A DNA stretch of 64,000 bases, from the IMG/VR virus record IMGVR_UViG_3300029286_002355, positions 64,001 to 128,000 of that record, one strand, 5' to 3'. The notes beneath the pieces are model-generated. The model worked only from the letters and a program-made list of their open reading frames with translations, was not told where the DNA came from and made no database searches. The position numbers and the translations under genes are program-made. Within the stretch, counting starts at the first letter, position 1; each line of letters begins with the position of its first letter. Positions 1,462-16,299 of this stretch are shown piece after piece. This DNA is from a virus.

Positions 1462-2386
1462 TTTTTGCCCAATGATGAATGGCTTCTTTTATTCTTTTAT
1501 CTAACCCCGCTAATTTGCATTCAATCCAAAGCTCTTCTAACCTTTTCACATCCCCTTTGTTATTGTATGTCCATTGTCTTGATTTTAAATAGGGGATTCG
1601 TCGTCTAGAAATCATTTTCCCTGTGTAAACGTTCCATAAAATAGCGGCGTAAAAATCAGCCTTATATGCATCAGGTAGATTCGTCCATGGCTTATATGAT
1701 TCGGGCATTAAATAGCTTAATAACGCAGGCCATATAGGAGAAATGTAGATGCCTTTTTCGCAGTTGATTTCGATAGGAATAGACCATTGCACGAAATAAG
1801 GAATTACAGCATAATCATAATAAATATATGCTTCTCCATCAATGTATCTTTGTTGACCTGTGGCTAAAACTCCCGCCATAAAGGAAATAGAATCCCTTGA
1901 ATAAGGAAGGTATAACGATGGAACGTGAGACCAAATATATCTATTTTCACCATATTTTTTGAGACTTTTTTTAACAATGATTTTGCCAGAGAACGGAGAA
2001 TCGCTAATAGTATTGGCTAAGTTCGTATTTCCAGACCATTTGAAAGCGGGGAAATGGGTTTTAAACCACGACACTTTACCGGCAGTAGTAAGTCCGGCAA
2101 CAAAATCTCCATTCCATATGCTTGCATTAATTTTAATGTGATTTCTTATATACCACTTGATATACGGTACAGGAGCATTACGAATAACAGTTTTGACAGA
2201 AGGGGGTGGAATTCCTTCAATACCGTCTAGATCCCACATTTGGCTAAGAATATCGTTGGTAAGTCCTTTTCGTCCTTTGAAAAGAAATATTTTTGACGCA
2301 ATTTCACAATATTTGATACGAAGTCTATTGGCTATATTTCTTGTATTATCGATTAAATAATAGGGTTTGGGTGTTAAGGAGATCAT
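1454..2386 (-). CDS. Hypothetical protein, possibly a degenerate LAGLIDADG-derived fold
   Basis: 310 aa ORF; two motifs FVAGLTTAG and FMAGVLATG resemble LAGLIDADG helices but lack the acidic residue. Confidence 0.4.
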   Translation of the reverse strand: MISLTPKPYYLIDNTRNIANRLRIKYCEIASKIFLFKGRKGLTNDILSQMWDLDGIEGIPPPSVKTVIRNAPVPYIKWYIRNHIKINASIWNGDFVAGLTTAGKVSWFKTHFPAFKWSGNTNLANTISDSPFSGKIIVKKSLKKYGENRYIWSHVPSLYLPYSRDSISFMAGVLATGQQRYIDGEAYIYYDYAVIPYFVQWSIPIEINCEKGIYISPIWPALLSYLMPESYKPWTNLPDAYKADFYAAILWNVYTGKMISRRRIPYLKSRQWTYNNKGDVKRLEELWIECKLAGLDKRIKEAIHHWAKTV

Positions 2387-2826
2387 AAGGGTTCTTGAAG
2401 CGGATCGTATTCTGATAAAGAAGGTTGGGTAACTTGGGGAACTAATATTATTTTTTTCCCCATTGCTATTGCTTTTTTTATGGTATCTTCGGTTCCACCT
2501 TTGCGATCAGAGGCTACTACGGCAATTAAAACATCGGAATCTTTAGCAATTAGAGTGTTTCTAGCGAAGTTGATTTCAGCATAAGCCCATCTAGGATTCT
2601 GTTTTAGTTTTACGGGATCAAGCTTAGATTTGTCGGGATAGTGGATTATTTTTTGGGTATGGTATTCTTCTATAAAGATTTTTGCAAACCTATCGCCACC
2701 CTTGGGACAGCCTCCGGAAACAATAATATCGCCCTCTTCGTAAATCTCCAAAAAGATTTTTCTACAGGCGTCTAGGTCTTCTTTTGTATCTCTTCTTCTA
2801 GATCCCACTATACCTATATTTTTCAT
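2383..2826 (-). CDS. SLOG-superfamily protein (YspA/DprA-like Rossmann)
   Basis: IGIVGSRR, IVSGGCPKGGD, RNTLIAKDSDVLIA, KGGTEDTIKKA; likely start 2826, 6 nt after TGTATAAT (leaderless). Confidence 0.8.
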   Translation of the reverse strand: MKNIGIVGSRRRDTKEDLDACRKIFLEIYEEGDIIVSGGCPKGGDRFAKIFIEEYHTQKIIHYPDKSKLDPVKLKQNPRWAYAEINFARNTLIAKDSDVLIAVVASDRKGGTEDTIKKAIAMGKKIILVPQVTQPSLSEYDPLQEPL

Positions 2827-2844
2827 ACCATTATTATACAAAAC

Positions 2845-4589
2845 CTAGCTAAATTGCAGCTTTTGCTTAAGGTCAAGGTAGTCCTGATTTAATATTTCTC
2901 TAGAATAGTTTTTATAATGTTCAGGAAGATAACGCCTATCGGAACAAGCTAATACCGCTGCTAATTCTTGTAGCCGTAGAAGCATGGGGTCAAGAGGATC
3001 AATGAACGAATCCACCGCCTCTTCAAAATCATTTGCTGTAACATTATCGTCTCGTTTAGCTATAACCGCCTTCTCTTTGGCCCGAATAACAATAGCTTCA
3101 ACATCACTCCCTGTTAAGCTACACTCTCCCATTTTCCTGTTGATCGAATTTCTTGTTTCATCTGTCAAAACAATAGCATTAGTTTTACAGACAGTTTCAA
3201 AAAGATCCATAACCTCTCCAGAATTTTGACTGGGGAAAAGAGGAATACAGAGGCCGAATCTTCCTTGACGTTTCATATCAATGGAAAGAAGATCGGGGCG
3301 AGATGTCATAGCTATCCAAAGTTCTCTTCCACGCAACGAAGTATCTCCAATGTAAGCTGCAATAGAAGAGAAAACTCTGGATGACACCCCGCTATCACCA
3401 GAAGCATTTCTGTTTCCCAAAGCCGCATCCGCTTCGTCAATAACAACGATAATAGGGCCAAGCGATTTAATAGTCATAAGAATTCTGGACAATTGTTTTT
3501 CGGTATCGCCAACCCACTTAGATCTGAAATCTCCCATAATCATAACTGGCAGTCCACATTCGCTAGCAAAACAACTGACCAAGAATGATTTCCCAACACC
3601 CACTCTCCCGGAAGTAAAATTCCTCTTTCTAGAACATTGCCCTTACCATCCTTTATCAGTTGGGCAATTTCACGCAATCTAGCTTTTGCCGCCGTATGGG
3701 TAGCAACATTTTCCAAACTGATACCTCTTTTAGGTTCCATAAATTGAACTAGTCCTTGGCAATACTCTTCGATCAATACCTTTTTCCGTTGAGAAAGATA
3801 CTTCCAATCTATTCTTATATTGTTATGAATGGCTTCCCCAAGAAGATGTTGGATTCGGACAAGATTTAAACCCGATGCCCTGCTAGCGAGTTGTTTGATG
3901 TCAAAATCGCAAAACTGTGACAATTGAGATTCTCCCAATAAGCCACTCATCCAAGTTGAATCGGAAAGGAAAGCCTCTCTTTCTTCGCCTGTGGGGAGTG
4001 GGATATTAACTTGGGCGAAATATGGATTGCGAACAATATCTGATTGAAGCTCAGAAATACTTTCCGTCAACAGAAATATTCCGATATCTGAATTACGCAT
4101 TTCTGGAGAGATGCCCCATTTTAGCATCGAAACGGTTGCCATTCTTTCTTCTTGACTCATGCCTCCACCCGACTCAGGAATAATTTTTTCAGCAAAGTCA
4201 ATGATTAGAGTGACTCCTTTCTTTTCATCGGTTGCCTTCATGAAAAATCTACGGAGGAGAGGGACAAGCTTCAAAAATTCTTTGGGAAGATTATTTTGAT
4301 AATTCGTCTTTTCTGTTTGATCGTAAATCTCAAGCCATTTGAAAAAGTCTGCCTGCATTATTTTTGACCCAAAGGTTAATCCATCACTAATGTCGTAATA
4401 GAGCAAATAGGGTCTGTCCTTGAATATCCGATTGGCAAGGAATGACTTCAAGGAAACATATTTGGTTCTTTCAAACGAGTTTTGAACCGGGAAAACATCA
4501 AATATATTACCGTATAGAACAAAGACAGAATAGGTTTGACTATTCCATTTTCGAACCAGCTCTGTTAGCCAAGAAGTGTTATCGTTCAT
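2845..4589 (-). pseudogene. Tandem AAA+ ATPase (SpoVK/Ycf46/Vps4/CDC48 clade) split by a 1-nt frameshift in Walker A (real lesion or assembly error)
   Basis: ORF 3540..4679 (start MNDNT at 4589) runs to ILLPG; ORF 2845..3603 continues VGVGKS, SKWVG pore loop, VVVIDEAD Walker B, KRQGRF Arg fingers; adding 1 nt at 3604-3606 gives a 581 aa protein. Confidence 0.85.
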
Positions 4590-5559
4590 ATGAATTCTCC
4601 AACGACGATTTTCTAATTTTCCTTGGATCTTTGGTTTCATAAGGTACTGCATTAACACTTTCTGTTTCACCAAACCCAATACGAGTTGTATTCAGTTGTG
4701 GCATATCTCCCACAACATCCTTGAAATCATTCAACTCCGAAAGCCACTTATTGGTACTTTCCAGATGAGATACGCTGGCATCAATTCGACTAGTTAAGGC
4801 ATCTGCATTACGGGTAGCAATAGCATCGGCCCGAATAAGTTTGACCTGTTGGGCTAGTCTTGCTTGTTCAGATATTACTATATCAATATTGTTTTTGCCT
4901 TGATCAACTCGCTCTAATCTCTTTTCTAATACGTCCAATCTTTCGGTATAGGAGTTAAGAAGTCTTTCCTTTGAACTGATAACCATAGCCGAACCATTTT
5001 TGGTATCCTTACGAGCATTGTCCAATTCTTTTCCAATGCTACTGATCTTTTCTTCAACCTCTTTTATTTCGGTGGGCAAATTATCTTGTCTTTCCGACTC
5101 AATAAAAACCTCTAGGGATTGCTCAATACACAGAAGTTTAAGATATGTCCAAATAAGCTCGTCAATTTTAATCAATCGTGTATTCATTGCTGTATCTTGA
5201 TCGGAAACAGAATCCATTGTAGCTTTTTCAATATCTTTGCCCACCTTTACCAATTCATTGTATTGCTGTTTGCGTGAATTACCAAGACTGGAATAATATC
5301 GGTCTCTTTTTATTTTGAACGCTTCTACTTGCCGTTGTTCTTCTTGTCTTTTGATTTCTGCATATTTTTCTTCCATCTTCTTTTTGAACCAAGGGGAATC
5401 GTGAAGAAACATAAAGCTCAACCCGTAAGCAACTCCGAATAGCAGAAAAATAAAGAAGTTTGCAGAAAGGAAGCCGAATCCAAGAAGACCCGCTGCCAAT
5501 CCGATATTCAGTTTACTTTTAAGATATTCTTTTGTGTAATCAATTTCGATATTGTCCAT
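4579..5559 (-). CDS. Two-TM, long coiled-coil protein of the PspA/AAA cassette
   Basis: N-terminal hydrophobic hairpin then heptad-rich helical body; translationally coupled to the AAA gene. Confidence 0.7.
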   Translation of the reverse strand: MDNIEIDYTKEYLKSKLNIGLAAGLLGFGFLSANFFIFLLFGVAYGLSFMFLHDSPWFKKKMEEKYAEIKRQEEQRQVEAFKIKRDRYYSSLGNSRKQQYNELVKVGKDIEKATMDSVSDQDTAMNTRLIKIDELIWTYLKLLCIEQSLEVFIESERQDNLPTEIKEVEEKISSIGKELDNARKDTKNGSAMVISSKERLLNSYTERLDVLEKRLERVDQGKNNIDIVISEQARLAQQVKLIRADAIATRNADALTSRIDASVSHLESTNKWLSELNDFKDVVGDMPQLNTTRIGFGETESVNAVPYETKDPRKIRKSSLENSYER

Positions 5560-5584
5560 AATCGCCTCTCAATTTATAAAGAAT

Positions 5585-5613
5585 ATCATAATATATTTTC
5601 CGCTAATTGTCAA
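5585..5613 (-). promoter_or_regulatory. Sigma70-type promoter TTGACA-17-TATGAT
   Basis: Near-consensus hexamers upstream of the 2TM coiled-coil gene. Confidence 0.7.
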
Positions 5614-5618
5614 TACAT

Positions 5619-6701
5619 TTATCCTATAAGTTTAAGTAGGGAAACCTCGTCTATATCTTCCCCTCTTTGTTTCTCGGTTTTTTTAGAAGATCGCATGGCT
5701 CTATTTACCCATTCCAATTCTCCCGAAGCGGTTTTACTATTCTCAACTCTATCTTGCAATTCTCTTACCATCTCGAAAAACCACTTCTTTTTCCTCATTT
5801 CTTCAGGAGAGATATCTGGCCGTGGAGCTTTCAAAATCTCAACCAGTCTTCCGGGATTTGCTTCCATTCTGAAAATTCTATCCCCAAGATAAACCGCTTC
5901 ATCCATGGAATGTGTAACAATGATTACTGTCCCTTGAATTTCTTTCCAAAGCTCAACCAAAAGCTCTTGCATCTTCAACCGCATTTTTGGGTCAAGGGCT
6001 CCAAAAGGTTCATCCATCAGAAGGATCTTAGGTTGAAGTATAAGTGTAGCGGCTAAAGAAACTCTCTGCTGCATACCACCCGAAAGTTCTTGCGGGAATT
6101 TATCTTCCGATCCTTCCAAGCCAATCTTTTTAACCCATTCCCTTGCCTTGTCTCTTCTTTCTTTCCGTCCTGTTCCATTCAATTTTAATCCAAAAGATAT
6201 ATTGTCGATTACCGTAAGATGAGGAAGGAGTGAATATTTTTGATCAACAACTCCACGGTCAATTCCTGATCCTGTAATTTCTCCACCTGCAACAAAAGCT
6301 TTTCCAGAAGTAGGAGGAAATTGTGGCTCTAATCCCGCTATGATTCTCAATATGGTTGACTTACCACAACCCGAAGGCCCAACCAAGGCTACCATTTCAC
6401 CCATATTAGGAACATCATGAACTTCAAAAGTAACATCATGAATGGCTATTTTATCGCCAAATTTTTTTGTTACATTTTGAAAAGAAACAATGGGTGCCGC
6501 TTCCAACAAGGCTTTTGGCTGTTTAGAAGCTTCTATTTGTTTTGGGGCTTCTTTGATTTCAATTTTGTGGGTTTCAATAACCTCTTCAATCTTAACTATT
6601 TCATCCTGTTTAATAGCTTCTGCTTTAACAGATGGACTAGGTTCCAATTTAGGAGCTTTGCTAACCCAAAAAGGAGCTAAAATTTGTTTTAGACTTGTCA
6701 T
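5619..6701 (-). CDS. ABC transporter ATP-binding protein, NitT/TauT/SsuB family, with ~70 aa N-terminal extension
   Basis: GPSGCGKS, LSGGMQQR, LLMDEPFGALD, H-loop VTHS; likely start 6701 just after the permease stop. Confidence 0.93.
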   Translation of the reverse strand: MTSLKQILAPFWVSKAPKLEPSPSVKAEAIKQDEIVKIEEVIETHKIEIKEAPKQIEASKQPKALLEAAPIVSFQNVTKKFGDKIAIHDVTFEVHDVPNMGEMVALVGPSGCGKSTILRIIAGLEPQFPPTSGKAFVAGGEITGSGIDRGVVDQKYSLLPHLTVIDNISFGLKLNGTGRKERRDKAREWVKKIGLEGSEDKFPQELSGGMQQRVSLAATLILQPKILLMDEPFGALDPKMRLKMQELLVELWKEIQGTVIIVTHSMDEAVYLGDRIFRMEANPGRLVEILKAPRPDISPEEMRKKKWFFEMVRELQDRVENSKTASGELEWVNRAMRSSKKTEKQRGEDIDEVSLLKLIG

Positions 6702-6702
6702 G

Positions 6703-7566
6703 TTAGCCTTTCTTTCTGTTTTGAGGGAACAACCACACCCCTGTAACTTTCCAAAGTTTATCACATAATGTAGCTATTACAACAATAACAATAATGATGG
6801 CAAAAATTTTATTGGTACAGCCTCTACGAGAAGATGTTTCCATGAGATAACCAATACCGTTTTGAGCATTAACAACTTCTGCTAGAATAATCCATCCCCA
6901 ACCTACTCCATAAACCCCACGAAGATGATTCCATATAGAAGGCATAGCTACAGGAAGCAATACGTTTTTTACCAACTGCCATTGAGATGCCCCCTTTGTT
7001 TTCGCCACATCAAGGAATGATTCGCTTACGTCATCGATTGAACGAATGACCAAGGGGAGAAGCACAACAAAACAGGCAATAAAAAGAAATCCTATTTTTT
7101 GTATTTCATCAGAACCCCACCAAGCCAAGGTCAAGGGAATAAAACTGATAATAGGAACATAGGAACCAATTAAAGCTACGGGTTTGAAAAAAGAAGAAAT
7201 AGGTGTAAACGCTGCCATATAAGTTCCAAGAACAAGAGCTAAAATCGCAGCAAGAATAAAACCTGATGTTACACGGACAAAAGAGACCCCAACGCTTCTT
7301 AGTAAGCCCTGATCAAAATGAAGAATGGGAAATGCCTGTAGAACTTCGACAGGACTAGGGAGAATAATAGGCGGAAGCATTCTATCTTCAACCCTATCTC
7401 CATTTGTAGAAAACCACCAAAATCCTATCAGAAGAGCAAGAAACGAAACCGTGATAAGAATTGATCTTTCTTTGGCAAGCTCTTTACGAACAGGGAACTT
7501 GGCAATTCTTACGACAAGAGTTAGAAGCACAACCAACCCTAAAATTATTCCAATGAAGCTCCACAT
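6703..7566 (-). CDS. ABC transporter permease, NitT/TauT/SsuC family
   Basis: Multiple TM helices, LPSPVEV motif, EAA-like loop DVAKTKGAS, GWGWIILAEV. Confidence 0.92.
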   Translation of the reverse strand: MWSFIGIILGLVVLLTLVVRIAKFPVRKELAKERSILITVSFLALLIGFWWFSTNGDRVEDRMLPPIILPSPVEVLQAFPILHFDQGLLRSVGVSFVRVTSGFILAAILALVLGTYMAAFTPISSFFKPVALIGSYVPIISFIPLTLAWWGSDEIQKIGFLFIACFVVLLPLVIRSIDDVSESFLDVAKTKGASQWQLVKNVLLPVAMPSIWNHLRGVYGVGWGWIILAEVVNAQNGIGYLMETSSRRGCTNKIFAIIIVIVVIATLCDKLWKVTGVWLFPQNRKKG

Positions 7567-7584
7567 AATTCCCTCGTTTCTTTA

Positions 7585-7624
7585 GCAAAAGGGAATGGAA
7601 GGTTTCTTCCACTCCCTTTTTTGC
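7585..7624 (-). terminator. Intrinsic terminator/stabilising hairpin between SBP and permease genes
   Basis: AAGGGAGTGGAAG-AAAC-CTTCCATTCCCTT followed by TT/TGC on the minus strand. Confidence 0.65.
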
Positions 7625-7639
7625 CAACATAGTTTTTGC

Positions 7640-9403
7640 CTATTCGGTTTCGAGAGGATATACCTTGATTTCGGTTCTTCGATTTTTCTTGTTTTGCTCC
7701 TTGTCGCTTGAATCTGTGCAACCGGGCAACGGGCTATCCCAACCATTTCCAACAACCTTGAACTTGTTAGGGTCAAAATTGGGATATTTGGTCAAAATAG
7801 ACTTCTTAACCGCTTCGGCTCTGTCATAGGACAATTTGCGAATAGCATCAGAAGGCACTAATCCCTTCATACTTCCATCGGTATTTCCTTCGATGACGAT
7901 GTAAGCATTACCGAAATTACCTGCAAGCATACCAATTTCAACAAGCGAATTTGGAATATTGGTATCATAGGTGGAATTCAAATCCCATTTACCAGATTCA
8001 AACCTAATCTGAACAGCCTTGGAAAGAATATTCCCTTCTCCAGCCTCAAGGGTCTTAAACACCATATTGGGACTGAAAACAGGCTGAGACAAATCCTGAA
8101 CGTCTTTATAGTCGTTAACCATTCCAAGAAGGAACTTGGAAGCCTTAACTTTGGCAGCAACAATAGGAGCATCAATAACCCCAAGTGACTGATAGATTGT
8201 TGAAGATTTATTCCAAATAGACTCAAAGTTAACTGGATTCATTTGGTCGCAGAAGAACTTGTAATTCTCTCTGTAATTGAGAAGATGGGCATCTCCGCTA
8301 GCAATACCACCATCTTTGCCAATCATCATTGCGCAATCCGCTACCGGAAGATTATAGGCCGCACTAAGATATTTGGCTGCAAGTTGGGGGTCTTTTCGAA
8401 CCATATCAACCCCCTCGAAAATACAGCGAATCATTTTTTCAACGATATCGGGATGATCGGTTGCAAAATCATTACGAACAGCCCAAACATCGAAGATAAC
8501 ATTATTGGCTGTAGCACTTGTAACCACCAATCTTGTTCCGGGGACTGAATCTGTAACCGTATAGATGTCAGGAGACCACCCCACGAAAGCATCAAACGAT
8601 GTATCCTGAACGAACAACTTAGCGGCTGAAGGAGCATCTTTTGTCCAACGGAAATCAATTTCGGCAGGATCAATACCCGCATTGATAAGCAGAATCATAA
8701 AGAAATTATGGCTAGGCGAATTCTGAGCAAGAACAACCTTGCACCTAACTCCATTCTTCATGCGGAAATCATTAATGGACTTGATATTGTTTCGAGAGAC
8801 AACCCCATCTCCACCATTTGAGTTATCAATGGCTTGAGCTACAATAGGAATAGTTCGTGAATCCTTTGACAAAGCAGGTGCAAAGAGAGCAATCATGTCC
8901 AATGTACCCCACAGAATATGAGAATGCCCACTCGCAAACAAATCTCTTGCCATGACAGGATCATCCACCAAACTAAGCTCAACGAAAAAGCCATACTTCT
9001 TATAGAAAAGACTTTCTTCGTTAGCCCCCATTCCGTTATTAGCCATGATGATTCCAGCCCATCCCGGCCATACATTAATAGGGAATTTCACCAAGAGTTT
9101 ACCGTTCTTGGTTGTTTTGTCATATGAGCTAACTGCCGTAACCGGAGGCATTACGCTATCTCCAATAAGCGAAACTGTATTAGTTCCTGCAAGCAATTTG
9201 GAGTTAATATCAACAGCAGTTTTGATTGCCGCCACTACATTACTCCCAAGGTTATTCAACTTATCCTTAAGAGCGTTAATGTTAATTGACGGATTTGAAG
9301 TCGGAGCAGGAGGGAACAACTTATCCTTCCACCTATAGCCCCCAATACTCAGTACGGCAATTACAGCCAATGCTACCAGAATTTTACCCTTTAGTGTCAT
9401 CAT
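7640..9403 (-). CDS. Membrane-anchored SsuA/NMT1-type substrate-binding protein fused to a C-terminal OmpA-like peptidoglycan-binding domain
   Basis: N-terminal TM anchor; WPGW and GTLD SBP motifs; C-terminal IEGNTD...LSYDRAEAV...GNG...NRRTEI OmpA motif. Confidence 0.85.
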   Translation of the reverse strand: MMTLKGKILVALAVIAVLSIGGYRWKDKLFPPAPTSNPSININALKDKLNNLGSNVVAAIKTAVDINSKLLAGTNTVSLIGDSVMPPVTAVSSYDKTTKNGKLLVKFPINVWPGWAGIIMANNGMGANEESLFYKKYGFFVELSLVDDPVMARDLFASGHSHILWGTLDMIALFAPALSKDSRTIPIVAQAIDNSNGGDGVVSRNNIKSINDFRMKNGVRCKVVLAQNSPSHNFFMILLINAGIDPAEIDFRWTKDAPSAAKLFVQDTSFDAFVGWSPDIYTVTDSVPGTRLVVTSATANNVIFDVWAVRNDFATDHPDIVEKMIRCIFEGVDMVRKDPQLAAKYLSAAYNLPVADCAMMIGKDGGIASGDAHLLNYRENYKFFCDQMNPVNFESIWNKSSTIYQSLGVIDAPIVAAKVKASKFLLGMVNDYKDVQDLSQPVFSPNMVFKTLEAGEGNILSKAVQIRFESGKWDLNSTYDTNIPNSLVEIGMLAGNFGNAYIVIEGNTDGSMKGLVPSDAIRKLSYDRAEAVKKSILTKYPNFDPNKFKVVGNGWDSPLPGCTDSSDKEQNKKNRRTEIKVYPLETE

Positions 9404-9450
9404 ATCTATACCCCTTTCTTTGTTACTACTATTATTGTTTGTTTATTTAC

Positions 9451-10218
9451 CTATGCTGTTGCTTCTATCTTTTGACGTTCTACAGGCTTAGACTCCGCTG
9501 TAGCTTCGGGAGCTTGAACCCCAATAGAAGCTTTCTGCTTGTACTCATTGAACAGAGCCCTACCACGTGCTTTTCGAGCGTCCTGTTGCATCCTGATATT
9601 TGCACCCATTTCTTTTGCAAGATCCATCGTTGCTGTCATTTGACCTTGCCCCTGAACAGACGCTTCACGCATCCTCTGTAATGCGGAAGCTGCTTCTCCA
9701 CCCACCATCCCTTGAAGCTCCGTAATAGATGCCTTCATCATTTGAGCAACCGATTCCATGTTTCTTGAGACTCGAACCTGAGCCTTAAGAGACATAAACT
9801 GTCGTTCGAGCTTTTGAATCTGACGAAGAGATTCCGCAATGATTTCGGTGTTCTGCTTATAGCTTGCGTTAAGCGTTTCCAGTTGTTCTTGGTTGGTTTT
9901 TAATTCACCTTCAAGGTTTGCCAACTCTTCCGCATAAATAGAACCGTTAGCCTCATCGTTCTCTTTTATAGCCAACTCAATCAAACGCTTAAACTCGTCT
10001 TGCTTATTGGTTTGATCCTTAATTTGCATTCTGAGAAGGATAATCGTAGATTGCAACTGACCATTGGCATAATGAGCCTTGTCAGCTTTCACCTTCTCTT
10101 CCCGCAAACTCTTCTCAACAACCGCTTCGTTCATGGCGTCTGTTTCTGTAGATTTCTCTATCCACAAACCCAAAGCCGCAAATACTCTTGCCAATGCCCT
10201 TCTAATGCTATCGAACAT
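9451..10218 (-). CDS. pspA: PspA/IM30 (ESCRT-III superfamily) protein
   Basis: N-terminal amphipathic helix MFDSIRRALARVF, ~255 aa all-helical coiled coil, A-rich PspA-like pattern. Confidence 0.75.
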   Translation of the reverse strand: MFDSIRRALARVFAALGLWIEKSTETDAMNEAVVEKSLREEKVKADKAHYANGQLQSTIILLRMQIKDQTNKQDEFKRLIELAIKENDEANGSIYAEELANLEGELKTNQEQLETLNASYKQNTEIIAESLRQIQKLERQFMSLKAQVRVSRNMESVAQMMKASITELQGMVGGEAASALQRMREASVQGQGQMTATMDLAKEMGANIRMQQDARKARGRALFNEYKQKASIGVQAPEATAESKPVERQKIEATA

Positions 10219-10247
10219 AATTAACTCCTTTCTTTATTGTTTGATAC

Positions 10248-10275
10248 ATTCTATCAGGTTTACAAAAAAATGCAA
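10248..10275 (-). promoter_or_regulatory. Sigma70-type promoter TTGCAT-16-TAGAAT with TGn extension
   Basis: Upstream of the pspA-like gene, followed by AGGAG RBS. Confidence 0.55.
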
Positions 10276-10287
10276 GTAAAATCGTAA

Positions 10288-10995
10288 TCAATCTTCTCGC
10301 TCCAAAAGAATCTTCTCTTTTAGAATGAAATCAAATTTTTCGTTCAACTCCTTTTCATTCGAAGCACCAACAACTGTAGCCCCACGATCCTGAACCGCTT
10401 TGAACAAACCAGCATCAATATCAAAAGCTACAAAATGAATTCCGTTTTTAATTCCTTCTTTTGACAAACCATCCATGATAGCATCGGGAGATGGGCCGGC
10501 GTTTGATCCACCATCCGTAAGAACCATAATATGTTTGGCTGGAGCATTTTTTATAATCGCAAGTTGATCAGAAGCAAGCTTGATAGCATTTCCAAGGGGA
10601 GTACCACCATCGGGAGAAGGAACTTTCCACTTCTTAATAACTTCAGATGCTTTTTTGTTATTATTCGCAATCCCAAATCCCTCATAAAGGACTCTGCCAT
10701 GATTAAGCAGAACAAGGCCAAGACCAATAGCACGATTCTTAGACATAGAAAGATATTGATCTAATCTGTTCCCAATTGATTCCAGAGCCCGACGAGAAAT
10801 GGCATCCTTACTTTCGTCTACACCTTTGTCATTTTTAACCGATTGTGCCATACTGCCAGAACCATCCCAAACAATATAGATAGCAATATTGTCTGTCTCC
10901 ACAGGAAGATCTACGGTTTTAACAGGGGCGGGAACAGAACCCGAACAACCTGCCACCATAACCATTATTGCTGCCAACACTATTGATCTTTTCAT
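10288..10995 (-). CDS. vWA-domain lipoprotein
   Basis: Lipobox VAG-C17; MIDAS DGSGS, GGTPL, VLTDG. Confidence 0.88.
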   Translation of the reverse strand: MKRSIVLAAIMVMVAGCSGSVPAPVKTVDLPVETDNIAIYIVWDGSGSMAQSVKNDKGVDESKDAISRRALESIGNRLDQYLSMSKNRAIGLGLVLLNHGRVLYEGFGIANNNKKASEVIKKWKVPSPDGGTPLGNAIKLASDQLAIIKNAPAKHIMVLTDGGSNAGPSPDAIMDGLSKEGIKNGIHFVAFDIDAGLFKAVQDRGATVVGASNEKELNEKFDFILKEKILLERED

Positions 10996-12288: not shown

Positions 12289-12708
12289 TTATTTATTTTT
12301 TACCAACCTAAAATATAGCTTTTCTATTTTTTTAATAAAATCTTCCATAGAATTATCCCACTTTAGACAATTACACTGGAAACAACATGGTACTATATTG
12401 CCCTTAATATATCCCTTATTGCTATCCATTCTATCGATACCTTGATATTTGATTTCTTTTCTAAACTCTTTGCTTTCACCAAATAGAACAAAAGTATTAC
12501 TTGGACCATCCCCGCAATAATGACAATTTTTATACATAATTTCTCTTACATCTTTTTTGGATAATTGAAGGGGAAACCCTTTTGTCCTTGCCCTTTGTCT
12601 TAGCCCGTTAAACATTCTTTTAATTACCTTGCTGTCTGCGTAATCTTGGTCTTCGTATTTTTCTTGATAACGAACAACAGCCCGTTCAATCATGCCACAA
12701 CTTCTGCA
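12289..12708 (-). pseudogene. HNH homing endonuclease, C-terminal part (gene interrupted by IS)
   Basis: CHYCG, GIDRMDSNKGY, NIVPCCFQCN; in-frame CRSCG directly abuts the IS right end. Confidence 0.85.
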
Positions 12709-12713
12709 ATGAA

Positions 12714-13910
12714 CTACCCAGACACTAAAGATGTCTGGGTTTCTATAGGATAGTTCCTACCCTTTTGAAATCCCATATTGGTTAATGCAAAGTCTTTAAC
12801 GTTCTTGGAAGCATTAACGTCTCTATCATGCTCCGAACCACACTTCTTACATTTCCATACTCTTTCATCTAATGTGAGTTCGTGATAGACTTCTCCACAA
12901 ACATTACAAGTCTTGCTGGACGGTTCAAATCTTCCTATCTTTAGAAAATTCTTACCATACCAATCGGACTTGTACTGAAGCATTCGGGTTAAATTGAACC
13001 AACCTAAATCTCCTATAATTCTGTTTGTAGGTGCTTGATTTTGACTCTGCATGTTTTTAATAGATAAGTCTTCAATACAAATCGTCTCTACTTGGTTATC
13101 GTGAGTCAATTTGTGTGATAGTTTATCTAAGAAATCTTTCCTTTGTCTTGCTATTTTTGCGTGTAACTTACTTATTTGCTCCTTCTTTGATATATGTTTT
13201 GTTGAACCCTTTGTTAGTAACTCTAGTTCTTGCTGATGTTTTGCTAGTTTATCTTGAGATTGCCTGAAGTATTTTGGTGATTCGATTTTATCTCCGTTTG
13301 AAATCGTCAAGAACATTTTAACACCAAAGTCTATTCCAACGGTCGTACTTTCTTCAACCGCTGGCTTCTTAGGAAACTCTATATTTTGTTCTACCAATAT
13401 TGAGGCATAATACTTTCCGTCATTTCCTCTTGAAACAGTGCATTGTTTAATATTCCCTTCAAAAGCTCTATCAAATATGCACTTCAATCTATTATCCCTA
13501 TTCTTGGTTTTAATGAACTTCGGGAGGTAAAGACGATTGTTCTCAAAATCTGGTCTAATGGAGTTAGCTTCAGGACAACAGAACGATTGCTTGTTATTCT
13601 TTCTTGACTTAAATTTAGGGAATCCCATGTTAGAACGGAAGAAGTTGGTATATGCGTTGTCAAGATTTCTGATAGTTGCTTGTAACGATTGACTGCCTAT
13701 TTCGTCTAGCCATTCATGTTCTTTTTTTAGTTCTATAAGGCTATTAGCTAAATCTACCCATCCAATAGTTTTTTTAGTTTCCTTGTAGTGAGTAATCTTC
13801 TTTTGAAGGAAGTGATTATAGATGAATCGACAGGAGCCAAAGTGTTTTTCAAGCAAAACTCTTTGTCCTTTATTTGGATACAATCTATATTTGTAAGCTA
13901 GTAATTTCAT
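12714..13910 (-). CDS. tnpB: TnpB RNA-guided endonuclease
   Basis: AYKYRLYP HTH, RuvC-I VGIDFG, RuvC-II CIEDL, Zn finger CNVCG/CKKCG, RuvC-III DRDVNA. Confidence 0.95.
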   Translation of the reverse strand: MKLLAYKYRLYPNKGQRVLLEKHFGSCRFIYNHFLQKKITHYKETKKTIGWVDLANSLIELKKEHEWLDEIGSQSLQATIRNLDNAYTNFFRSNMGFPKFKSRKNNKQSFCCPEANSIRPDFENNRLYLPKFIKTKNRDNRLKCIFDRAFEGNIKQCTVSRGNDGKYYASILVEQNIEFPKKPAVEESTTVGIDFGVKMFLTISNGDKIESPKYFRQSQDKLAKHQQELELLTKGSTKHISKKEQISKLHAKIARQRKDFLDKLSHKLTHDNQVETICIEDLSIKNMQSQNQAPTNRIIGDLGWFNLTRMLQYKSDWYGKNFLKIGRFEPSSKTCNVCGEVYHELTLDERVWKCKKCGSEHDRDVNASKNVKDFALTNMGFQKGRNYPIETQTSLVSG

Positions 13911-14316: not shown

Positions 14317-16299
14317 TCATTTCTTCCCCTTATACTCTAAGTATTTTCCGTGATAATCTTCATAAATTACTTCTTCGGAAGATTGCGCCTCTCCAATTTC
14401 AAGACCGTTTTCCTTACAAAGGATTACGAAATCAGCAGGAGAAATACTGTCAAAAGTCAAAAGCTGGTCAACCGTAGCTTTTAAAATCTGACTATTCCTA
14501 GTTAAAATATCATTGGCATCACTTCTGCATTTTTTCATAATGGTTTCAATAAGATTGTTTGTCCCTTCCACATCATTATTCAATAACTCCATTTCTGTGG
14601 AAACCGTGGAATCATAATTGCTCATGGCCCACTTACGAATCATACTTCCTGCACGTTCAGTCGCATGCATTAAATCGGATTCGTTCCCATTGGTTACAGT
14701 ATCGCTACCAAAAATAATGCGTTCCGCTTCTGTCCCAGCAAGAAGAACCGTGATTTTCTTAAGAAGCATACTTTTGGAGTTACATGTGCTTAGCGTATAA
14801 ACAAAACCTTCGGCCTCATTAGAAGCAGGGGTAGCCATAATTTGACTGGGCGACATTTTAAAAAGATAAGCAAATGCTACGGCGTGTCCTCCTTCATGAA
14901 CCGCCGACATTGCCCTTCTGTTATTGTTTTGCCCACGTTCTTTCTTGAGCTTGTCTAGAGTCCCCATGTAGGGAGATTTGATAACAGCTTCACCAATTTC
15001 AACTTCTATTTTTTCAGTCTTATAACTAAGCTTCACCATGGTCTTTTCGTTTATAATTGCTTCCAAAAGAAAGTTCGGCAAAAGTGTTTCGAGAATTTCT
15101 GATATGGTTGAAAATACAGGCCGGGTTCCTTGAGTGGGGAAAACGCCATTGTCATAAATCAACTTATTAATTGATTTATCTACAACCAAATCAATTCCCG
15201 CCGTAGCCTTAACCCTCTCGATGATCCCTGCGATTTTTCTTTCAATAATCACTTCAAAAGAATTTTTGCTGAGAGAGGGGTAAATGATATGACAGTTTCC
15301 CATACGAGAAATTTGTTCGGGGCGAAACCTTTTTGATAACGCTGCTTTAATATCCAAAATGTTAATCTTTTTAGACATATTGTGTAGGATATCGGCATCT
15401 ACATCAACTTCTTTTGAATCCTTTGTAAATCCGTAAGCATCATCTAAGTTGCCAGAAATAAAGATGAGACATTTCGTGTAATCTTCTTCTTCATAAATAG
15501 ATTTACTGGCTAACCTTTCCATAATAATTTCTTTCTTCTTAGTATCTGTCCAAAGAGCTATTTCCTCAAGCGATTCATTAAGACGAAGTAAACTTTTGAA
15601 ATAATTAAGCTGGTAAAAATTGAATTTACCATCATCGTCATCCTTAAAATAGGGTTTGGTCTTTATATCTGGAGAATCAAAAAGATCACTGTCATCATCA
15701 TCGTCATCTGATAAATCTTGACCAGACACTCTGGAAGTTACCGGAACTCTTGCTATGACATCCTTTTTCTGATAATCCCATAACATATTCATAAGACTCT
15801 CCACTTCTACTTGAAACGGAAGCTTGCCATCACTTAGAAGAGTCCAAACGTCCTTGAACTTGTAATCGTGGATATCTTGTCCCTGTTCATCAATAGTTCT
15901 AAATCCCTGAACTTCGTCTAACAATATAATGGCCGGACTACCAGATTGGATATTCGTATTCTGTCTAAGAATAGCTGCAACACTAGGACTCCAAGGATAA
16001 GTTGAACATCCTTTGTTGGAAATAATAATCTCACAAAACTTGTCTGGAAATCCAAGAATTTTAACCAATCTACGAACCAAATCTGTCTTGCCCACTCCGG
16101 TTGGTCCAAAAAGACATACAATAGCAGGACGAGTAAGAAGCTCAGGAAGGCAATACCACGTTTCAATGTTCTTGATGATCTTATCAATAATATCATCCAG
16201 TCCAACAAAATGAGCCTTCAGTTCTATTGCTGCCTTATCTAGAGTTGCCTTACGTTCTTTAATTCTATCAGCCAATTTTTTGATATCAAGTTTATCCAT
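14317..16299 (-). CDS. Soluble Clp-type AAA+ ATPase fused to an FtsH-like (M41) metalloprotease domain
   Basis: FGPTGVGKT, ILLDEV, RFRPEQISR; C-terminal AVHEGGH, LLAGTEAE, NESDL. Confidence 0.8.
   Translation of the reverse strand: MDKLDIKKLADRIKERKATLDKAAIELKAHFVGLDDIIDKIIKNIETWYCLPELLTRPAIVCLFGPTGVGKTDLVRRLVKILGFPDKFCEIIISNKGCSTYPWSPSVAAILRQNTNIQSGSPAIILLDEVQGFRTIDEQGQDIHDYKFKDVWTLLSDGKLPFQVEVESLMNMLWDYQKKDVIARVPVTSRVSGQDLSDDDDDDSDLFDSPDIKTKPYFKDDDDGKFNFYQLNYFKSLLRLNESLEEIALWTDTKKKEIIMERLASKSIYEEEDYTKCLIFISGNLDDAYGFTKDSKEVDVDADILHNMSKKINILDIKAALSKRFRPEQISRMGNCHIIYPSLSKNSFEVIIERKIAGIIERVKATAGIDLVVDKSINKLIYDNGVFPTQGTRPVFSTISEILETLLPNFLLEAIINEKTMVKLSYKTEKIEVEIGEAVIKSPYMGTLDKLKKERGQNNNRRAMSAVHEGGHAVAFAYLFKMSPSQIMATPASNEAEGFVYTLSTCNSKSMLLKKITVLLAGTEAERIIFGSDTVTNGNESDLMHATERAGSMIRKWAMSNYDSTVSTEMELLNNDVEGTNNLIETIMKKCRSDANDILTRNSQILKATVDQLLTFDSISPADFVILCKENGLEIGEAQSSEEVIYEDYHGKYLEYKGKK

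Follow-up and report, generated by a model that had tools for sequence, protein, structure and literature searches.

Here we describe a cassette of seven genes on the minus strand (positions 2845-10995) of a 64,000-nucleotide stretch of viral DNA, referred to as the window, which represents bases 64001-128000 of the single 186,119-bp IMG/VR record IMGVR_UViG_3300029286_002355 (36% GC). The cassette encodes a von Willebrand factor type A (vWA) lipoprotein, a PspA-like protein, a substrate-binding protein (SBP) fused to an OmpA-like domain, the permease and the ATPase of an ATP-binding cassette (ABC) transporter, a protein with two transmembrane segments (2TM) and an AAA ATPase. With a probability of roughly 0.55, we read it as a complete chromosomal envelope operon of Verrucomicrobiota or the Planctomycetota-Verrucomicrobiota-Chlamydiota (PVC) group that was captured long ago by the ancestor of a large phage lineage, has since been kept by selection, and sustains membrane and uptake of the host.

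The region contains eight minus-strand open reading frames (ORFs), which correspond to seven co-oriented genes with intergenic gaps of -11 to +73 nt. This is what an earlier reading of the bare sequence (the initial annotation) had described as seven co-oriented, tightly packed genes. From the upstream end of the minus strand, the features are:

10288-10995 (-): vWA-domain lipoprotein, 235 amino acids (aa); Pfam VWA and LPAM_1 above cut-offs, lipobox Cys and metal ion-dependent adhesion site (MIDAS) motif
10248-10275 (-): promoter-like site TTGCAT-16-TAGAAT with extended -10, upstream of the PspA-like gene; read from the sequence, sub-threshold
9451-10218 (-): divergent PspA/IM30-family protein, 255 aa; transitive profile evidence and fold ranking
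7640-9403 (-): inner-membrane-anchored SBP fused to an OmpA-C-like domain (SBP-OmpA), 587 aa; weak NMT1/SsuA_fam and OmpA matches
6703-7566 (-): ABC permease of NitT/TauT type; BPD_transp_1
5619-6764 (-): ABC ATPase, likely start ATG at 6701; ABC_tran
5585-5613 (-): sigma-70-like promoter site TTGACA-17-TATGAT between the ABC ATPase and 2TM genes; consensus match, 11/12
4579-5559 (-): 2TM helical protein, 326 aa; AlphaFold2 (AF2) model, no Pfam family
3603-4589 (-): AAA ATPase, N-terminal part with a putative degenerate, P-loop-less AAA-like domain, linker and first half of Walker A; homology to the relatives L008 and L118
3600-3611 (-): frameshift site of the AAA gene, one base missing in the Walker A codons; comparison with relatives
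2845-3603 (-): AAA ATPase, C-terminal part with GVGKS, SKWVGD pore loop, Walker B, second region of homology (SRH) and lid; Pfam AAA

The gene order is that of a chromosomal operon of Verrucomicrobiota

For the N-terminal part of the intact ATPase, at least 804 homologues were found, many of them from named Verrucomicrobiota and on contigs of up to 909 kb. A scan with the AAA alignment, in which each prokaryotic species was represented by a single genome, returned 80 loci. Nearly all of these bear Verrucomicrobiota or PVC labels, and gene order was counted in the 52 loci with at least 7 kb of upstream sequence. The genes for the PspA-like protein, SBP-OmpA, permease, ABC ATPase, 2TM protein and AAA ATPase followed each other in window order in 38 of these 52 loci; in 33, a vWA homologue was also present upstream of the PspA-like gene, which completes the set of seven. 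The window proteins are 38-67% identical to the Verrucomicrobiota members encoded in the same order. In the bacteria, the operon sits in chromosomal surroundings, beside ileS and lspA on the 909-kb contig and beside polA on a contig of 761 kb. The initial annotation had assumed a host-derived cassette with similar operons in bacterial chromosomes, and the order of all seven genes in the Verrucomicrobiota/PVC loci bears this out.

A shorter bacterial variant (loci L009, L013, L036 and L063) keeps the PspA-like, OmpA, 2TM and AAA genes and lacks the ABC genes. The 2TM gene is the most constant neighbour of the ATPase gene and adjoins it in 50 of 52 loci. Together, these two observations identify the 2TM-AAA pair as the constant core of the operon and the transporter as an optional part of it in bacteria.

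The cassette has been inherited and kept under selection in phages

All seven genes were also found in a 91-kb IMG/VR record (L008, the same as L092 and L174) and in a 50-kb contig (L011), at 31-63% identity to the window. Both encode an intact ATPase of 578-580 aa and carry an extra small ORF after the PspA-like gene. Two further carriers, L118 (23.5 kb, 31.7% GC) and L115 (18.7 kb, 32% GC), are closer to the window for some genes (PspA-like protein, 65-72%; ABC ATPase, 72%). L118 is collinear with the window over the genes for NAD ligase, a Lon-like protease and pncB, the seven cassette genes with an intact AAA gene (611 aa), a homologue of orf310, an exonuclease and the next gene, at 37-72% amino acid identity. 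The window differs from L118 by insertions only, namely a SLOG gene, an endonuclease VII-like gene together with TnpB, and a 299-aa gene. This collinearity shows that the cassette predates the divergence of two phages whose proteins are today only about 60% identical.

The base composition of the cassette is that of its carriers: its GC content is 40% in the window and 33% in L008 and L011, near that of the respective flanks, whereas it is 52-72% (median 61%) in 44 bacterial loci. A chimeric assembly with a bacterial contig is ruled out by the phage-like GC content of the cassette and by the identical flanks in L118. Between L008 and L011, the ratio of nonsynonymous to synonymous substitution rates (dN/dS) is 0.016-0.11 for all seven genes at a dS of 0.34-0.44. 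The phage base composition, which reflects amelioration, and the low dN/dS values show that the cassette is old, inherited and selected in phages. In a tree of six concatenated proteins, the window grouped with L118 and L008 with L011, and the four formed one group outside the sampled bacteria with an approximate likelihood ratio (SH-aLRT) support of 100.

Neither a near-identity DNA search with the cassette nor a tblastn search with the PspA-like protein matched any of 50,697 GenBank phage records, and single-protein scans of IMG/VR and metagenome contigs with the N-terminal part of the AAA ATPase returned nothing close. The scan with the SBP alignment revealed the low-GC carriers L115, L118, L134 and L178, and no relative above 64% identity.

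The phage cassettes also carry lineage-specific small ORFs, which had no family match and have no counterpart in the window. An ORF of 99-101 aa follows the PspA-like gene in three carriers (L008:7528-7833, L011:5073-5372, L178:533-829; dN/dS 0.33 for L008 vs L011), and one of 189 aa lies between the SBP and permease genes of L118 (12128-12697).

The 255-aa protein is a divergent PspA/IM30-like protein

By itself, the 255-aa protein matched the PspA/IM30 family PF04012 with an E-value of 9.3e-5 (22.6 bits), under the gathering cut-off of 33.9. Such sub-threshold matches at E<=0.01 were obtained for 19 of 48 members of its family (best E, 2.5e-6). When the family profile was run against 1.8 billion representatives, it reached full-length proteins at library-wide E-values of 7e-11 to 4e-5, and six out of ten scanned targets pass the PF04012 cut-off with 40-151 bits. 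The AF2 model predicts two long helices (residues 2-85 and 89-170), with a predicted local distance difference test (pLDDT) score above 90 over residues 40-130. Foldseek searches with this model returned Vipp1 or PspA in 12 of the first 13 rows (E, 3e-3 to 5e-2), and residues 1-144 of E. coli PspA superimposed on it with a root mean square deviation of 1.5 Å over 116 columns. Pure geometry does not discriminate here, as all long hairpins tie at a Z-score of about 12. Comparison of the family with E. coli PspA alone by hhalign gave no match, nor did the family profile find anything at E<=1 among PDB sequences. From the transitive profile evidence and the fold ranking, we accept the 255-aa protein as a member of the PspA/IM30 (ESCRT-III) superfamily, in line with its initial assignment. 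Its N-terminus is amphipathic, the helical hairpin is long and the C-terminal tail is conserved.

A nearly invariant ERQKI-x-E motif ends the family (9451-9500, minus strand) after a disordered or low-confidence linker and is kept from bacteria to phage. Judged by its sequence, this motif is a possible recognition tail or handle for the ATPase.

The AAA ATPase resembles Cdc48/VAT and lacks one base in its Walker A motif

The C-terminal part of the AAA ATPase matched Pfam AAA (2.3e-18) and is 62% identical to L008; the N-terminal part shares 44-55% identity with the intact proteins (578-611 aa) that L008 and L118 encode. The stretches FRSKWVGD, IDEAD and SRPD...KRQGRFG are invariant across the family. 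Accordingly, the SKWVG pore loop and the Arg fingers named by the initial annotation are present, together with Walker B (IDEAD) and the SRH arginines. Its assignment to the Vps4 class did not hold. The best PDB matches were VAT and the D2 domain of p97 (1.7e-29); the NCBIfam model of CdvC gave 39.9 bits (cut-off, 650), which is less than the models of CDC48 and PAN gave.

The N-terminal approximately 320 residues belong to no Pfam family, and an MIT domain was not detected there by Pfam, PDB sequence or profile searches. A phmmer search of the PDB with the N-terminal part found nothing. With a profile of this domain, all four PDB matches were weak hits to AAA domains of the FtsH family (E, 0.14-1.9), whose in-register alignments begin in the post-sensor region and include the lid. 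The positions of Walker A and B are occupied, judged by eye, by LHGN-FD and IIDFPE, and an hhalign comparison of the N-terminal with the C-terminal half gave no match. The in-register hits fit a degenerate, P-loop-less D1 AAA domain. By sequence, the enzyme classifies as a putatively tandem, classic-clade AAA ATPase of the Cdc48/VAT-like type and not as a member of Vps4. By analogy, it may work like Vps4.

The AAA gene is split by a single base missing in Walker A. The window reads CCGGGA-GAGTGGGT where the codons of the relatives are CCN GGN AGA/CGC GTN GGN and encode the family-invariant PGRVGVGKS, so that the window protein reads PGE and then continues with GVGKS one base out of frame. The N-terminal ORF was called at 3540-4679, and its true start lies at about 4589. 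Across 28 bacterial homologues, 196 residues are invariant; both parts taken together keep 183 of these, compared to 167 in the intact L008 copy. This degree of conservation indicates either a very recent mutation or a sequencing or assembly error. A programmed frameshift is unlikely: no slippery heptamer is present at the site, and in L008, L011, L118, L010 and L052 the motif lies within a single frame.

If the lesion is real, the cassette of the window might be a decaying passenger, which no longer works as a whole. The missing base does leave two overlapping ORFs, and the scans with the N-terminal AAA part and the SBP found no closer relative that might carry an intact copy. We consider such a decay doubtful, since the gene shows no further lesions and keeps its invariant residues, the other six genes are intact and all seven are under strong purifying selection in the relatives.

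The 2TM protein is the constant partner of the ATPase gene

According to its AF2 model (pLDDT 86.6), two helices of the 2TM protein form a short hairpin in the membrane (about residues 16-52), and its remainder is a long helical bundle on the cytoplasmic side. The stop codon of its gene overlaps the start of the AAA gene in the window and in relatives. The initial annotation had proposed a comparison of its structure with ESCRT-III, and neither fold nor profile searches gave an ESCRT-III signal. None of the 71 members of the 2TM family matched the Snf7 Pfam family. Foldseek and VIA-align returned generic helical bundles and coiled-coil or BAR-like noise only, and a search of PDB sequences with the family likewise yielded only coiled-coil or BAR-like noise. 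Comparisons by hhalign with the PspA-like family and with E. coli PspA gave no match. An ESCRT-III kinship of the 2TM protein is therefore unconfirmed. In a protein-language-model search of the ESM-Atlas, its nearest named cluster was Rv2743c (PspM; 0.85), which is a lead only, as hidden Markov models gave no backing.

The cassette encodes a predicted wall-tethered ABC importer and a vWA lipoprotein

The vWA protein scored just above the cut-offs for Pfam VWA (24.5 bits, cut-off 23.8) and for the lipobox family LPAM_1 (20.1, cut-off 20), and its translation shows a VAGC lipobox and the MIDAS residues DGSGS...T...D. SBP-OmpA combines an N-terminal membrane anchor, an NMT1/SsuA/TauA-like binding domain and an OmpA-C-like peptidoglycan-binding domain. 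Its domain scores lie below the cut-offs (NMT1, 18.2 vs 20.5; SsuA_fam, 44.5 vs 163.5; OmpA, 23.8 vs 27.2 bits); the motif NTDGS...LSYDRA is present in the sequence, and the protein is 61-65% identical to the members of the bacterial operon. The permease matched BPD_transp_1 above the cut-off (2e-17, 64 bits), with SaoP, TauC, SsuC and NtrB as nearest NCBIfam models, and the ABC ATPase matched ABC_tran above the cut-off (7e-29, 101.5 bits). The latter is 55-72% identical to its relatives in alignments that start near residue 75-93. Upstream of this point lies a Lys/Glu-rich N-terminal extension of roughly 55-75 residues (6440-6764), which is missing in the bacterial ABC ATPase of L010 (304 aa) and in the other phage copies (321-326 aa). 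Judged by these matches, the transporter qualifies as a predicted binding-protein-dependent ABC importer of the NitT/TauT type, of which the SBP matches only below the cut-offs.

The cassette might accordingly be mainly an auxiliary set for nutrient uptake, kept for an importer of sulfonate, nitrate, taurine or similar, with the PspA-like, 2TM and AAA proteins merely assembling or maintaining the transporter. The transporter genes are the best conserved ones (permease, about 63-67%; SBP-OmpA and ABC ATPase as given above) and have the lowest dN/dS (0.016-0.067); the window copy could import despite the broken AAA gene, and the neighbouring pncB is a metabolic gene. We regard this explanation as unlikely, because the ABC-less variant of the bacterial operon retains the PspA-like, OmpA, 2TM and AAA genes, and because the most constant unit in bacteria is the 2TM-AAA pair and not the optional transporter.

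The surrounding record has the gene content of a large phage

IMG/VR classifies the 186,119-bp record as viral and linear, with a CheckV completeness estimate of 82%. Nearly all of its genes are on the minus strand. They include those for replication and repair (DnaE-type polymerase, UvsX-like recombinase, gp46/47-like SbcCD, a sliding-clamp-like protein, NAD ligase, RecJ, RNA ligases, RtcB and an endonuclease VII-like protein) as well as many HNH endonucleases and TnpB transposases, five tRNAs and one tmRNA. Such a gene set is in keeping with a large-phage replication arm, and the cassette lies within this replication and repair region, as initially described. It is very likely that the record is a phage.

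The initial annotation had also asked for confirmation by terminase or capsid genes, and these were not found: terminase, HK97/T4 capsid and sheath families (PF03237, PF17289, PF05065, PF07068, PF04984) had zero matches in the 186-kb record or its relatives (G000-G003), all of which are fragments with CheckV estimates of 15-82%. For PF07068 (Gp23), this result is uninformative, as the control genomes gave no match either. The virion module either lies past the contig ends or is too divergent for detection.

The record could alternatively be an extrachromosomal element, plasmid-like or of another kind, or stem from a cellular fragment that was mis-binned. Apart from the unmatched virion families, a PHROGs scan of thirty large ORFs gave solely nucleic-acid enzymes, transposases and unknowns, and one related record carries a provirus label. 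Such an origin is improbable given the viral class, the CheckV estimate, the near-uniform strand and the combination of UvsX-like recombinase, SbcCD, RNA ligases, RtcB, endonuclease VII-like protein, HNH endonucleases, tRNAs and tmRNA, which is typical of the replication arm of large phages.

A record that IMG/VR labels provirus, L102 (IMGVR_UViG_3300029288_007054; 90 kb), comes from the sample that also yielded the cassette-bearing L008 record, and its DnaE polymerase is 55% identical to that of the window's genome. It is possible that both 90-kb records stem from a single phage that is related to the phage of the window.

Flanking genes and promoter-like sites

A gene for a 152-aa SLOG/DprA-like protein (2383-2841, minus strand) starts 3 nt past the ATPase stop. 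It matches Pfam LDcluster4 and DNA_processg_A and, weakly, PADLOC ShosA and PsyrA. Neither the collinear L118 nor the bacterial operons contain this gene, which marks it as a separate insertion. On the other side, pncB and the gene of the Lon-like protease are separated by an endonuclease VII/HNH-like gene (134 aa) and one of TnpB type (398 aa; together at 12289-13910, minus strand); L118 has neither of them in this position. A further TnpB gene directly follows the cassette ATPase in L011. The TnpB genes near both cassettes suggest that mobile elements cluster around them. The ATP-dependent Lon-like protease homologue (660 aa; 14317-16299, minus strand) occupies the same position in L118 with 53% identity.

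Three promoters had been proposed initially. A consensus scan recovered those at 5613-5585 (11/12) and 12270-12243 (10/12, with TG), and the site at 10275-10248, with an AAAGGAG ribosome-binding site between it and the PspA-like gene, is weaker and remained under the scan threshold. In total, 28 promoter-like sites were observed compared to 27.4 expected in shuffled sequence, and the promoters are consequently leads only. Early expression by host RNA polymerase, as initially proposed, is likewise a hypothesis.

A model for the phage-borne module and the points against it

Our model places a NitT/TauT-type ABC importer in the inner membrane, in which its binding protein would be anchored while the OmpA-like domain would pin it to the peptidoglycan. 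The vWA/MIDAS lipoprotein would be periplasmic. On the cytoplasmic face, the PspA/IM30 protein would coat and stabilise stressed membrane, and the 2TM helical protein probably anchors or nucleates it. The tandem AAA+ unfoldase, with a presumably inactive D1 and an active D2 with the KWVG pore loop, probably recycles assemblies of PspA, of the 2TM protein or of both. Carried by the phage, the module would most likely keep the host inner membrane tight and energised through a long infection and keep one solute flowing in meanwhile. We infer the direction of transport, the ligand and the benefit to the phage, as well as every physical interaction; a physical coupling of the PspA-like, 2TM and AAA proteins is deduced from gene order alone. 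That all seven genes were kept through a complete turnover of base composition with dN/dS below 0.12 argues for a set that functions as one unit and is of benefit during infection.

Several points weigh against the reading of the cassette as a captured and selected envelope operon. The AAA gene is out of frame in the window's genome, and the motor may therefore not be made there. Nothing links the 2TM protein to PspA, including the fold searches and profile comparisons described above. The phage clade of the tree unites long branches with deviant amino acid composition, so that a single capture is firm only for the window and L118. As no capsid, terminase or sheath gene was recognisable, the viral nature rests on the IMG/VR class and the gene content. 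With a GC content of 28-36%, the phages differ widely from the bacterial carriers that were sampled, which thus do not point to the host. Finally, the literature yielded no experimental work on the operon in any organism.

The module might also serve in phage-phage or host-defence conflict, as an envelope-based superinfection exclusion or as a counter to membrane-depolarising abortive infection, both of which the initial annotation had considered. PspA is induced by phage and membrane damage in model bacteria (PMC7619361), the module would span the envelope with a tether to the wall, and the AAA domain weakly resembles the IetA/IteA defence ATPases. We think this improbable as well, as PADLOC found no defence system in the cassette beyond generic IetA-type AAA and weak coiled-coil (ZorA-tail), TerY and ShosA similarities, and the bacterial operon lies among housekeeping genes and not in defence islands.

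Comparison with known systems

The operon belongs to a class that has been predicted before. Ravi, Anantharaman, Aravind, Gennaro et al. (2024; PMC11237479) described operons of PspA, a transmembrane 'Snf7 homolog', a tandem AAA+ protein with an inactive N-terminal copy, an ABC ATPase, a permease and a PBPb-OmpA protein. The window has the same gene set in one co-directional cluster, and the proposed logic is the same, with ATP-dependent remodelling of a PspA-type polymer coupled to solute transport and an OmpA tether to the wall. It differs in that its copy resides on a phage-type element with phage base composition, and in the vWA lipoprotein, a seventh conserved member that the text of PMC11237479 does not mention. 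The 'Snf7' assignment of the transmembrane protein found no confirmation in our searches.

Phage carriage, which the initial annotation regarded as the new aspect, has precedents. Yuan and Chen (bioRxiv 10.64898/2026.10.24.761521) reported 189 pspA genes in 184 huge phages and 667 IMG/VR genomes, with complete ABC transporters adjoining 15 of them and with VWA proteins and a 2TM substrate-binding protein nearby. An AAA ATPase occurs nowhere in the text of this preprint, and the neighbourhood is not tied to the bacterial operon class. New here are L118 with the cassette in the same slot, the GC contrast, the dN/dS values and the one-base gap in the AAA gene. The finding is real and well supported; as both the operon type and phage-borne PspA have been described, it is incremental.

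With the classical Psp systems (E. coli pspF-pspABCDE and M. tuberculosis clgR-pspA-pspM-pspN), the cassette shares a PspA effector and a small integral membrane partner. In contrast to these, it lacks PspB, PspC and PspF, its AAA protein is of the unfoldase type and not an NtrC-type transcription activator, and E. coli PspA gives no profile match to the PspA-like family.

The likeness to ESCRT-III/Vps4 (CdvB/CdvC) lies in a predicted helical-hairpin polymer protein of the same superfamily that is paired with a classic-clade AAA unfoldase. The SKWVGD pore loop 1 of the latter resembles what we take to be the loop of Vps4. In contrast, the window ATPase is putatively tandem, has no detected MIT domain and is nearest to the D2 domains of Cdc48/VAT. 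The likeness is thus one of possible working mode and not of family membership. We tentatively consider a bolder version, for which we see a smaller chance than for the captured envelope operon as such: the phage would encode a working bacterial counterpart of ESCRT-III together with its recycling motor, composed of a PspA-type polymer, a membrane anchor, the tandem AAA protein and the wall-tethered importer, which would actively reseal or reshape the host inner membrane. L118 and L008 offer small, AT-rich and intact gene sets suited to biochemistry, and the cassette adds to recent evidence that large phages manage the host envelope. According to reviews, bacteria possess PspA and Vipp1 but no Vps4-like recycling ATPase (PMC7619361, PMC10936438). 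The operon class is the main candidate for an exception to this rule and, if the bolder version is true, the lineage would represent a natural and compact system for the dedicated AAA turnover of PspA polymers.

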